In this document: piece after piece, positions 20,510-51,844 of the stretch
How the letters are laid out: every line of letters begins with the position of its first letter
How positions within the stretch are numbered: position 1 is the first letter of the stretch
Assembly: GCA_963736115.1 (NCBI GenBank)
Contig: CAVTNR010000027.1
Coordinates: 96,001-160,000 of the forward strand
Source: an uncultured bacterium
GTDB lineage: Bacteria; Zhuqueibacterota; QNDG01; DTFT01
Direction: 5' to 3'
Length of the DNA stretch: 64,000 nt
Made by a program: the position numbers and the translations under genes
Notes under the pieces: model-generated
Told to the model about the DNA's origin: nothing
What the model saw: the letters and a program-made list of their open reading frames with translations, nothing else
Database searches by the model: none

Positions 20510-21265
20510 TCATTGCGCCAAGCGCGTTACAGCATTCGTTAAATCCGGTTTTCTTTGATTTGAATCGATCTCATTGAATTCGGTCGCTATAAAAATATAT
20601 CCTAAATCATCTTTGCCCAGGAACAGAATGAATAATTGAAGCTCCCCGCCGCAAGCGGCGGGGAATCTTCTATCTGTAGAGAAGAGACATCTGATATTCG
20701 CTCGCTTACCCCGCGGCAAGCCGCGGGGAATGCGCTCGCTGTCAGATTCAATTGCATCATTTCTACCCAGGTTGCGGTTGATGTGCGGTAAAAGCTTCTC
20801 CTGAACGGGGATCCAATGCACGTTCATGCCTTCCGTTACCTTGATTTCCTGCCGATAGAGAGACGCGAGAGTCGGTTCGATTTGGAGTGTTTGCACCCAC
20901 AATTTGATGACGTTTTTTCTGTTTCCGGAAATGGGTCTCCGAACGGCTGTGTAGTTGCATGAAACCCGATACTTTGCAGTCTGACACTCAATTTCAACTC
21001 GTTCAAGGGTTTTTTTCTGTGCCGCTGGATAGACTGAGTGATTCCGTTCTTCCGTGATTATGTCCTGTAACGTTGTTTCGATGTATGAGGCGTAATTGAA
21101 CTCCGCCGATCCACAGGCCGTCCAAGCCCACAAAACAATAACCGTGGCGATCGAAAACTTCCTTTTGTGTTGATTCATTGGATCTTGCTCATGTTTGTTG
21201 TTTAAGAGAATGCCTGAATATTCCATGACATGATTTTTTTCTATTCGTTTCCGATCAGAGTTCAT
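20510..21265 (-). CDS. Hypothetical exported protein carrying a 37-aa in-frame mobile-element insert
   Basis: ORF is intact; residues SDSERIP...ACGGELQ are encoded by element 20636..20746. Confidence 0.65.
   Translation of the reverse strand: MNSDRKRIEKNHVMEYSGILLNNKHEQDPMNQHKRKFSIATVIVLWAWTACGSAEFNYASYIETTLQDIITEERNHSVYPAAQKKTLERVEIECQTAKYRVSCNYTAVRRPISGNRKNVIKLWVQTLQIEPTLASLYRQEIKVTEGMNVHWIPVQEKLLPHINRNLGRNDAIESDSERIPRGLPRGKRANIRCLFSTDRRFPAACGGELQLFILFLGKDDLGYIFIATEFNEIDSNQRKPDLTNAVTRLAQ
20636..20746 (-). mobile_element. 111-bp non-autonomous IS200/IS605-like palindrome-associated element (PATE)
   Basis: Two subterminal hairpins (20644-20663, 20709-20728); inserted 3' of TTGAA, ends in TTCAA, no target duplication; guide tetranucleotides CATT and GATT fit the IS608 guide-pairing rule. 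Confidence 0.8.
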
Positions 21266-21972
21266 TCAGACTGAATCATAGCGATCCGATCAAGGGTCAC
21301 CAATGAACCGCTTTTCAGAAAAATCACGCTACCTCCCAACTGCAGAACTTTTTCAATGATCAGGTCGACCACGTCATCGATGACCTGCCAGAGGTTGACG
21401 TTCTTTGATACAATCAGGAGATGATCCTTTTTCCGAATACTGCCCCTCACATGAAAATCTTCCTCTACATATAGAATGGAACCTGCCGCCGTCTCTACGA
21501 ACCGACTGATGGCTTCGATTCCGTAAACGACTTTCTTGTTTTTGCCCGCCGCTTCCAGATCATGGATGGCGTTTTTATCAGTACCGGCAATCGCATCCTT
21601 AACGACGGGCCATACAATCTTTCCCAAATCGTGACTTGATGTAAGGGAGTAATCTCCTTCAACAGTGCCGAGGAAAGAGTCCATGTGAGCAGACAATGTT
21701 TTAATTTTATCGAGAAAACTCTTTTTACCGACTGCAACCCATCGAAGTGGATCTTGAAGGAAATAATGGGAAAATCGCCGATCCGTTTGACTGCAAATCT
21801 CCAGCAATTGGCTGTCATTGGAGGCTAACTTGATAGAATTGTCTAAATCGACTGAAATTTTAAATGGGAAATTCAGATTCTGAATATCAATGAGTTTTTC
21901 GCGAAATCCTTCATATAACCTGATTGTCCGTTCATTCAACGAAAGAACGTAATAATGAATGCTGGGCTTCAT
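21262..21972 (-). CDS. baeRF3-like (bacterial archaeo-eukaryotic release factor family) protein, short form
   Basis: YYVLSLNE...RLYEG...FPF, G.VEGDY, LYVEEDF and DDVVDLIIEKVL..GG.V.F motifs. Confidence 0.65.
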   Translation of the reverse strand: MKPSIHYYVLSLNERTIRLYEGFREKLIDIQNLNFPFKISVDLDNSIKLASNDSQLLEICSQTDRRFSHYFLQDPLRWVAVGKKSFLDKIKTLSAHMDSFLGTVEGDYSLTSSHDLGKIVWPVVKDAIAGTDKNAIHDLEAAGKNKKVVYGIEAISRFVETAAGSILYVEEDFHVRGSIRKKDHLLIVSKNVNLWQVIDDVVDLIIEKVLQLGGSVIFLKSGSLVTLDRIAMIQSE

Positions 21973-41267: not shown

Positions 41268-41492
41268 GTAAATTACTGTCATTTCGGGATTACTACGTTT
41301 TCCCAGCCTTCATAATTCTCAGGAGAAAACGGTCAAAGTCAATCAAAAATTGACATATATTCAAATATTAAGTGGAATATTACCTTTCATCATTCATTGT
41401 AGTTGCCTGATCCACAATAACCATTGTATAAAATCATCGGATGTTTCGTAACAAGGTTTCGCTGGTTTCCGTCTTATAGTGCGGTTTTTAAT

Positions 41493-41648
41493 CGGGCGGC
41501 CAGAAGCCTGGTCATTCCGGTTTCAGTTTTTCTGGATGATTGAAAATGGAGCTCCTGGCCGCTCCGACGGGTCGAATTCCCCGATGCTTGCGGCGTCCAT
41601 CATCCAAGTTTCCTGTGATACCCCGCTGCTTTCGGCGGGGTCCTTCAT
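41493..41648 (+). mobile_element. 156-bp palindromic non-autonomous element (IS200/IS605-like), copy 1
   Basis: Homologous to 49885..50040 and 51607..51822; preceded by TTAAT and ends in TTCAT; CCCCG..CGGGG hairpins. Confidence 0.75.
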
Positions 41649-41713
41649 TTGGTGAGGTCCTTCAGGAGCCAGGCATGTTGGCTTGCCTCAGGACGACTCC
41701 TTTAAAATTTACT

Positions 41714-49884: not shown

Positions 49885-50040
49885 ATGAATGACCCCGCCG
49901 CAAGCGGCGGGGTATCACAGGAAATCTAGATGATGGACGCCGCAAGCGGCGGGGAATCAGACCCGTCGGAGCGGCCAGAAGCCAAATCTCCGATCATCCA
50001 GAAAAACTGGTACCAGAATCAAAAGGCTTCTGGCCGCCAG
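49885..50040 (-). mobile_element. 156-bp palindromic element, copy 2, overlapping the pdxT 3' end
   Basis: Reverse-complement homolog of 41493..41648 with the same length; preceded by TCAAT and ends in TTCAT. Confidence 0.8.
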
Positions 50041-50623
50041 ATTGAGCAACGAAATTATTGAGGAAATAACCATGTATGCGTGTATCGTCCGTCAGCTCGG
50101 GATGAAAGGTCATGCCGAGAATACGGCGGTTCCGCACCATGACCGGATCGGTCCCATGAAATCCGACCGCCTCCGTTCCCTTCCCCAGCGTCCGGATTCG
50201 GGGCGCCCGGATGAATACGCCATTCAGTTCAGGATCTGCGTTCATAAATGAAACGCGGACCGGAGCCGTGAAGGAATCGACCTGCCGGCCGTAGGCATTG
50301 CGCTCGACCTCGATGTCGATGAGGCCCAGCGTCTCCATGGCTACGCCCGAAACCCGGGTCGCCAGGGTGATCAAGCCTGCGCATGTGCCCATCACCGGCC
50401 GGTCGGCCGCAAAGGACCGGATCGATTCGAAGAGCCCGGTTTCCTTCAGCAGTTTGACGAAAGTGGTTGACTCCCCGCCCGGAAGAATCAGTCCGTCGCA
50501 CGCGTCCAGCTCCCCGGGCCGTCGGATGCGGGGCGCCTCGACGCCCAGCGCCTCCAGACTGCGGCGGTGCAGGCTGAAATCGCCCTGAACCGAGAGAACA
50601 CCGACAACCGTTTTTTTCACCAT
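49994..50623 (-). CDS. pdxT: PLP synthase glutaminase subunit
   Basis: GVL..QG, PGGEST, GTCAG, RNAYGRQ, FIRAP and FHPEL motifs. Confidence 0.96.
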
Positions 50624-51510: not shown

Positions 51511-51606
51511 ATTTATGTTCCTCCTGACTTAAGCCAATAATTTACGAAACTTTTCGGCTGAATTCAAGAATCCGCTTGCATTTCTCGAAAATATCGGTTA
51601 ATTAAT

Positions 51607-51822
51607 CGGGCGGCCAGAAGCCTGGTCATTTTGGTTCCGGTTATTCTGGATAATCGGAGATAGGGCTTCTGGCCGCTCCGACAGGTCGAGTACCCCGGGC
51701 CCGCGATGCCTTCAATAACCGGCATATGTTGCTTGGCCCCGCGAAGCCTTCATATAGCTGGCTTCTGTAGCTTGGTCCCGCGAAGCGGGACGGTACGGTA
51801 CGGGGCGGCCGGGGTCCTTCAT
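51607..51822 (+). mobile_element. 216-bp variant of the palindromic element, copy 3
   Basis: Shares the 5' ~85 nt and the GGGGTCCTTCAT end with copies 1 and 2; interior differs; preceded by TTAAT. Confidence 0.65.
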
Positions 51823-51844
51823 CCGTAAAACCGGAGGCAGGACA

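Follow-up and report, generated by a model that had tools for sequence, protein, structure and literature searches.

The window analysed in our study was the whole stretch of 64,000 nucleotides, and the insert under study occupied positions 20636-20746 of it on the minus strand. The host gene (20510..21265, minus strand) was an ORF of 251 amino acids encoding a protein of unknown family, the frame of which was open through the element. The gene upstream of it (21262-21972, minus strand) encoded a baeRF_family3 protein (PF18845, E 8e-17) and overlapped the start of the host gene by ATGA. No Pfam family was matched in the host protein and its homologues. The insert was one copy of a multi-copy repeat family and was 111 bp long, that is 3 x 37, and the host frame crossed it without a stop. 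The preliminary description of this DNA had claimed an in-frame insert adding 37 residues, and the sequence was found exactly as it had been quoted there. On the minus strand the segments from 20746 to 20636 were, in order, TCTGACAGCGAGCGCATT, CCCCGCGGCTTGCCGCGGGG, TAAGCGAGCGAATATCAGATGTCTCTTCTCTACAGATAGAAGATT, CCCCGCCGCTTGCGGCGGGG, and AGCTTCAA. With the junctions marked by ^, the copy read ..ATTGAA^TCTGACAGCGAGCGCATT-CCCCGCGGCTTGCCGCGGGG-..-GATT-CCCCGCCGCTTGCGGCGGGG-AGCTTCAA^TTATTC, with ..GCAATTGAA as the left flank and TTATTC.. as the right flank. The peptide encoded by the element in the host frame was SDSERIPRGLPRGKRANIRCLFSTDRRFPAACGGELQ.

The host protein was searched against a collection of 5.8 billion proteins with a query of 222 amino acids, read from a later Met. 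The search gave 28 hits, which were the own protein, 21 full-length relatives of 179-216 amino acids, and six unrelated proteins. Eleven of the 21 full-length relatives were aligned, and all 11 were devoid of exactly the 37 residues, the sequence at the insert point being ..(I/M)(E/D/G)^(L/I)FI... The absence of these residues from homologues, with a clean ..IE^LFI.. junction, had been predicted from the DNA and was borne out. The six unrelated metagenome proteins matched only about 16% of the query, and all of them contained the element-derived peptide, directly preceded by a Glu from the target GAA. Two of these six carriers were an endoglucanase with PF00150 and a 4Fe-4S protein, and one carrier was longer by 15 residues at the position that a 45-bp module occupies in the DNA family. 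An AlphaFold2 model of the host protein, built from 12 sequences, had a mean pLDDT of 35 and was too poor to place the insert. No orthologue of the host gene was found in the congeners, where only the insert matched, and the host locus was absent from the 24 public runs listed (shares 0.06-0.09). The contigs of four unrelated public runs matched only positions 20608-20777 and diverged at 20634/20635 and 20750/20751, the parts of the flanks without contig cover being uninformative; these loose contig ends gave independent support for the boundaries, as the element plus TGAA. Near-identical copies of the element (window 20635-20750) were also contained in metatranscriptome contigs of the runs X23 and X24. 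One RNA-library contig of 251 nt spanned the whole element with two differences; DNA carry-over is possible for this contig and transcription is not implied.

The top strand of the element corresponds to the minus strand of the window, and all parts are given on that strand. The target tetranucleotide TGAA (20747..20750) formed the left cleavage site and contributed to ..ATT GAA (Ile-Glu) in the host frame. The left-end arm TCTGACAGCGAGCGCATT (20729..20746) contained 18 nt from the cleavage site to the hairpin foot and was near-invariant in 37 copies; the presumed left guide is CATT (20729-20732), the four bases that close this arm. The left subterminal hairpin, CCCCGCGG-CTTG-CCGCGGGG (20709..20728), was 98.3% paired over the 37 copies. 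The core (20668..20708) contained conserved TAAGCGAGCGAAT and then a variable stretch, in which a weak third hairpin (TCTTCT..AGAAGA) was 81.9% paired. The presumed right guide GATT (20664..20667) lay directly 5' of the right hairpin foot and pairs with TCAA under the IS608 rule. The right subterminal hairpin, CCCCGCCG-CTTG-CGGCGGGG (20644..20663), was oriented as the left one and was 92.9% paired over the same copies. The near-invariant right-end arm AGCTTCAA (20636..20643) contained an A and a G 3' of the foot, followed by the right cleavage site TCAA (20636-20639), which was the end of the element in all copies. Both subterminal hairpins were present on one strand in direct orientation, and terminal inverted repeats were absent, the ends TCTGACAG.. 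and ..GCTTCAA not being complementary. The hairpin motif matched seven times in the window (both strands, at most two mismatches), against 0.01 expected from shuffles.

Conservation was studied in an alignment of 37 copies, each 110-112 bp long, taken from the own genome, its relatives, and metagenomes. The arms, the stems, and the GCGAGCGAAT block were near-invariant and the centre was variable. The slid controls for hairpin pairing fell to 44-65% paired. One stem pair of the left hairpin was C:G in 21 copies and G:C in 16 copies, and was unpaired in none. This compensatory change is modest evidence, as it is a single covarying position and possibly one inherited event.

The genome from which the window was taken (G000) is a 3.34 Mb draft in 31 contigs, 87.5% complete. 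When the 111 bp was searched against it with blastn-short, 89 hits at 62 loci were found (E up to 1e-3), and the 111-bp copies showed 92-97% identity to the focal copy. The family starts with TCTG(A/T)CAGCGAGCG and finishes with GGGGAGCTTCAA. All of the 18 copies printed with their flanks started with TCTG(A/T)CAGCGAGCG and finished with GGGGAG(C/A)TTCAA, except for AGCCTCAA and GCGCTTCAA, found once each. The lengths of these 18 copies fell into classes of 111, 155-156, 199-201, 244-245, and 289 bp, which differed by modules of 44-45 bp placed in the loop of either hairpin or reversed in the stem. Joining each left end to the nearest right end after it yielded 49 elements in the genome, 41-292 bp in length. 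The copies of 41-55 bp had no core and a single hairpin, set between the left and the right arm. No pair of left and right ends was found between 292 bp and 8.6 kb in the own genome, and hence no autonomous long copy.

Outside of this genome, the element was present in 15 of 41 related genomes; it was found in all three congeners and was patchy across the families of the order. One copy-rich relative (G017) contained 467 first-look candidates. A scan of metagenomes with the left-end pattern gave 62 loci with 54 distinct copies, and a recognisable right end was present in 39 of the 54, at a distance of 46-333 bp. Twelve copies without a recognised right end were short elements with diverged right ends, and no long form was found among the 54 copies. 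The public-run metagenomes with related copies came from sediment, freshwater, wetland, soil, and bioreactor. Some elements were arranged head to tail, the right-end TCAA of one abutting the left end TCTGAC of the next, in the metagenome copies L109, L125, L128, L135, L140, and L154 and in the own genome at C14:183899-184184. Such a junction is as expected in an excised circle, or TCAA may have served there as a substitute target. A different extra hairpin (CCCCGGGCTTTGACCCGGGG) was present beside the left hairpin in four metagenome copies of other lineages (L099, L114, L127, and L151), and nested hairpin modules are therefore a general trait of the family.

The tetranucleotide on the left flank of the 49 own-genome copies was TGAA in 31, CGAA in 9, GGAA in 4, AGAA in 1, TCAA in 3, and another one in 1, and NGAA preceded the element in 45 of the 49. 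The preliminary description had proposed to count further copies, their targets, and in-frame cases, and copies with the same target as well as in-frame ones were found. In the three copies flanked by TCAA the element abutted the right end of another element. TGAA preceded the element in 45 of the 54 metagenome copies. The +1 base was T in 38, A in 8, and C in 3 of the own-genome copies (n=49), and it was T in 35 of the 39 metagenome copies with a right end. The flanks of three other copies were compared with four relatives, and empty orthologous sites were found for each of them in 2-3 congeners. These copies were one of 111 bp in a histidine-kinase gene (contig C12), one of 156 bp in a GDPD gene (C2), and one of 111 bp at the start of an MBL-fold gene (C28). 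The flanks of the empty sites were 83-90% identical and abutted exactly, TGAA being present once with nothing duplicated or left over. The junctions, in the orientation of the element, were CCTGAA^CCATCC, GGTGAA^.., and CCTTGAA^ATCA... The insertion takes place 3' of TGAA without target duplication, of which the precise empty sites of these three copies are direct proof. The top strand of the element was present on the locally G-rich strand in 31 of the 49 copies (Fisher p 0.09), a weak bias in the direction expected for insertion into the lagging-strand template.

In the 111-bp form three of the six frames were open (sense 0, sense 1, and antisense 0), and the module in the in-phase versions was 45 bp. 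The element persists as an in-phase coding insert in several genes. The focal host gene reads it in sense 0. In a GAF-PAS-histidine kinase it was present in the first GAF domain in sense 1, where the Pfam match was split at about 33 and resumed at profile position 34. In a glycosidase of 550 amino acids it was present in the GH30 TIM-barrel in antisense 0, and Pfam found two stretches around the insert. The GDPD gene contained the 156-bp copy after codon 3, in antisense 0; this site was empty in three congeners, whose GDPD proteins without the insert begin with M-x-x-FTVFAHRG. The claim of a tolerated coding insert was reinforced by these recurrences and by the unrelated metagenome proteins described above. 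Four further in-phase copies lay within or just before the first codons of genes whose start codons are not established, encoding an MBL hydrolase, an HtrA-like protease, an LppC-like lipoprotein, and a 1021-aa glycosidase-like protein. Long open frames through five other copies (two in contig C3 and one each in C12, C10, and C11) were rejected as coding, being without Pfam support and likely high-G+C read-through. Copies with a length that was not a multiple of three mostly had no open frame through them, as purifying selection on genic insertions would leave.

The ends of the element were compared with those of IS608. In IS608 the left cut falls 3' of TTAC, at a distance of 19 nt from the left hairpin foot on its 5' side, and the right cut falls 3' of TCAA, 10 nt from the right hairpin foot on its 3' side; each foot is preceded by four guide bases, which recognise the cleavage site (PMC3201880). 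The right-end pairs of IS608 are C-3 with G-35 and T-4 with A-34, and the two bases just 3' of the right hairpin, A-10 and G-9, take part in triples (PMC3201880). Its left-end pairs are A+16 with T-3 and A+17 with T-4 (PMC5934647). In our element, the left guide CATT places C against G-3 and A against T-4 of TGAA, and the right guide GATT places G against C-3 and A against T-4 of TCAA. The guide pairs at both ends satisfy the IS608 rule, in which guide base 1 pairs with -3 and guide base 2 with -4 (PMC3201880, PMC5934647). The most variable target position (T, C, or G at -4) was the partner of guide base 2, and C-to-T variants of guide base 1 (GTATT) retained a G:T wobble with G-3. The IS608 rule also has a pair between guide base 4 and -1, and here T faces A-1 at both ends. 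No informative case of natural covariation between guide and end was found.

The element resembled IS608 in its subterminal hairpins on the same strand, in the 4-nt guides that precede each foot and pair in the same register, and in its left linker (18 nt here and 19 nt in IS608). The right end also closed in TCAA, the right hairpin was followed directly by A and G, and a base was preferred after the target, which was T here. Such a preference amounts to about 70% for TTAC^C in IS608 and about 90% for TTGAT^G in ISDra2 (PMC5934647). The element differed from IS608 in its target (TGAA instead of TTAC), its guides (CATT/GATT instead of AAAG/GAAT), and its right linker (8 nt, that is AG and 6 nt, instead of 10). 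Its stems were G+C-rich and perfect over 8 bp, and its 111 bp contained no tnpA or tnpB. Given this anatomy and the guide match, the structural argument of the preliminary description, in which CATT fits TGAA and GATT fits TCAA, holds.

The enzyme was searched for in the own genome and its relatives. Three Y1 matches were found in the own genome with Pfam Y1_Tnp and NCBIfam REP_Tyr_transpos, and all were of RAYT type (NF047646, 88-134 bits; C17:75009-75827, C2:71373-71945, and C19:57396-57962). Each lay between inverted REPs of its own, which were of the GTAG type for two of the genes and of the GGGAGTGCCGCGC type for the third. No cognate tnpA with the ends of the element was found in the own genome, which is 87% complete. 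The TnpB zinc-ribbon search gave no match there with its controls positive, and the Y2_Tnp search also gave none, the control genomes being equally silent, hence uninformative. At 21 Y1 loci of five element-rich relatives (G001, G003, G014, G017, and G025), no end, hairpin, or module motif of the element was found within the mismatch limits used, and the flanks of six Y1 loci in relatives contained other hairpins when inspected by eye. RAYT matches were present in 39 of 41 relatives, up to 17 per genome, and the element in 15 of 41, so the presence of RAYTs does not track the element. The motifs were absent from 29 RAYT loci of the relatives, except for one module-like match. A tnpA accompanied by the same hairpins, which the preliminary description had proposed to look for, was found neither in the own genome nor in the five relatives, the 29 RAYT loci, or the 62 metagenome loci. 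One IS200-type tnpA of a congener (L034, G001:C383:1-1756) was rejected as the cognate gene; it differed in its guide (AAAT) and in its linker, and the contig broke off short of the right end. This gene was preceded by AAAT-CCCCGCGTGCCGCGGGG, with a CCCCGCG stem similar to that of the element. A second IS200-type tnpA in the same congener (L030, G001:C169) was surrounded by GGGTAGCCCACGGCTGAAGCCGTGGG repeats, and both genes adjoined dinB-like genes. The unfound tnpA is weak negative evidence, because the searched genomes are incomplete drafts, which break at repeated insertion sequences.

The element is probably a palindrome-associated transposable element (PATE), namely a non-autonomous transposon of the IS200/IS605 type that moves as a single strand. 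This reading draws on what was observed of the number of copies and their boundaries, on the target and the lack of its duplication, on the empty sites, on the conserved hairpins, and on the copies within coding sequence. Acting in trans, a Y1 HUH transposase would bind the two subterminal hairpins of the top strand as a dimer, and the guides CATT:TGAA and GATT:TCAA would fix the two cleavage points. The element would then exit as a single-stranded circle, the donor being sealed exactly, and the circle would re-enter single-stranded DNA 3' of another TGAA, preferably at TGAA^T, with no duplication. The focal copy would have landed between codons of the host gene in this way; with a length of 3 x 37 and three of the six frames open, the host frame survived with 37 extra residues. 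The enzyme class, the circle, and the excisability of the focal copy are inferred, and excision without a scar would be expected from the mechanism and from the clean empty sites in other species. Of the mobilisable IS200/IS605 PATE that had been proposed at the outset, the multi-copy, non-autonomous nature and the IS608-like ends stood, and the cognate tnpA was not found. As no such tnpA was found, the Y1 reading of the IS200/IS605 type is put no higher than probable, and some weight is left to another driver of the same chemistry.

This other driver would be a domesticated RAYT (TnpA-REP), the element being a REP/BIME-like repeat and not a remnant of an IS200/IS605 transposon. The own genome contained three RAYTs, no IS200-type tnpA was found in it, and it was full of other hairpin repeats; RAYT matches occurred in nearly all of the relatives, and the autonomous parent was not found in any search. 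However, the own RAYTs were flanked by other REPs, two of them of the GTAG type, and the hairpins of the element were present at 0 of 29 RAYT loci of the relatives. The two hairpins are direct and not alternating, their feet are preceded by CATT and GATT and not by GTAG/CGTC, copies lie inside genes, and the presence of RAYTs (39/41) is not matched by that of the element (15/41). We consider a RAYT driver unlikely on this balance. Another transposase with a fixed target and no duplication, such as a Y2 rolling-circle enzyme (IS91-like) or an IS110-like one, appears very improbable. The signature seen here, in which a TC start and a hairpin close to the 3' end go with a fixed tetranucleotide, a lack of duplication, and insertion between A and T, is reminiscent of the ends of IS91 and Helitron. 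Two similar hairpins, each with a 4-nt guide that fits its cleavage site, are however specific to Y1 enzymes of the IS608 kind; the own genome also gave no Y2_Tnp match, which says little with silent controls.

It is hardly credible that the focal copy is not a real insertion at all, that is, a repeat placed by the assembly or a segment native to the protein. The genome is a draft of 31 contigs, 87% complete, and no public run with the host locus was present among those listed, which would leave room for an assembly artefact. Against it, the insert lies exactly at ATTGAA^T, the preferred target of the family, with exact ends and in phase, and assemblers break at repeats and do not splice them cleanly. 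A native segment is excluded by about 50 DNA copies elsewhere and by the absence of the 37 residues in 11 of 11 aligned homologues.

Other repeats were found close to the element or within it. A micro-element of 44-45 bp, (C/T)CTTCAA..GCTTG(G/A)TCCCGCG.AGCGGG, was present for example at 51746-51789 (plus strand) in the window and gave 86 blast matches over the whole own genome. It was present mostly in hairpin loops, lying between stem halves that matched in at least seven of eight positions in 43 of the 86, and at six of eight in 17 more. The loops bearing it belonged to the PATE, to a second repeat family, and to REPs flanking RAYT genes, and the micro-element was also found alone. The second family, of about 190 bp or more, had about 32 copies in the own genome, with three in the window at about 41480-41650 (plus strand), 49890-50050 (minus strand), and 51600-51830 (plus strand). 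It contained a long conserved self-complementary 5' part (..ATCGGGCGGCCAGAAGCC..GGCTTCTGGCCGCTCCGACGGGTC..), followed by two PATE-like hairpins and the end ..GGGGTCCTTCA(T/A), and was often present just upstream of genes. Covariation of guide and end in this family (GATA with TCAT, GATT with TCAA) was rejected as evidence, being mixed by eye with about 15 cases that fit and at least five that do not. In the window Rfam found no family at the gathering score and only sub-threshold chance hits on a neighbouring repeat.

In uncultured sediment bacteria, the element is a clean natural example of guide logic of the IS608 type, directed here at a new target, TGAA. Hairpin elements can last as in-phase peptide inserts within enzyme and sensor domains, in three different frames, and such inserts would otherwise be annotated as lineage-specific loops. 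Guides of only four bases make the element a compact substrate for experiments on retargeting. It also raises the testable question of which enzyme moves such elements where RAYTs alone are found; the spread of REP-like repeats has been described as poorly understood (PMC8266576). A bolder proposal, which is speculative and to which we give a slim chance, is that the family is currently mobile, with the RAYTs as the only detectable Y1 enzymes. In that case the element, as a natural substrate, would show that full IS608-style guide-directed cut-and-paste at TGAA is performed by "domesticated" REP transposases. The 44-bp micro-elements would form a second, smaller mobile layer targeting single-stranded hairpin loops, and scarless excision together with three open frames would make a reversible peptide-insertion switch in proteins.

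Among known systems, a classical MITE was ruled out, as terminal inverted repeats and target site duplication are both absent; insertion in phase within genes has been mentioned in the literature for other MITEs. REP/BIME repeats with their RAYTs share with the element the G+C-rich hairpins, the high copy number, and a Y1 HUH enzyme thought to act in trans, RAYT genes being present here as well (PMC3333891, PMC8266576, PMC2817692). The element differs from them in its direct hairpins, fixed outer ends, and fixed target, and in being present inside genes and flanking no RAYT gene examined. REP/BIME repeats are defined by a GTAG/CGTC tag at the hairpin foot and by alternating orientation. The feet in our element lack such a tag, as defined in PMC3733652, and are preceded by CATT and GATT.

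Palindromic elements of Rickettsia (RPE) are short palindrome-bearing mobile repeats that form in-frame peptide inserts in genes. Our element resembles them as a palindromic mobile repeat surviving in genes in phase, whereas it has no sequence relation to them and another transposition signature, with a defined target and IS608-like ends. The element belongs with the in-frame coding repeats of the RPE kind as a functional class and not as a sequence family. Among the listings and abstracts covered by our literature search, no report was found of an IS200/IS605-type PATE as a recurrent in-phase insert, nor of the present family; this is not proof of absence.

The closest counterparts were the PATEs of haloarchaea. 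Those of Haloquadratum walsbyi derive from IS605-type transposons (Dyall-Smith et al., 2011, PMC3119063), and terminal-only forms of 52 bp arise by deletion between the two palindromes (PMC3119063). Small repeats named SMR-A insert into the palindromes of PATEs and of IS605-type transposons (PMC3119063). Like our element, the haloarchaeal PATEs have similar near-terminal palindromes without terminal inverted repeats or target duplication, are too short to code, and show strain-specific insertions with clean empty sites (PMC3119063). One-palindrome forms of about 50 bp and small repeats inserted in palindromes are likewise common to both (PMC3119063). The present family differs in its bacterial host and in that no parent IS605-type transposon was found. 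Its nested inserter is 44 bp long and has a single terminal hairpin; SMR-A has inverted terminal repeats and a length of about 110 bp (PMC3119063). Its in-frame coding copies are recurrent, and none is described among the features given there for haloarchaeal PATEs (PMC3119063). The family is a bacterial counterpart of the haloarchaeal PATEs, and its IS608-like target rule is legible in the sequence.
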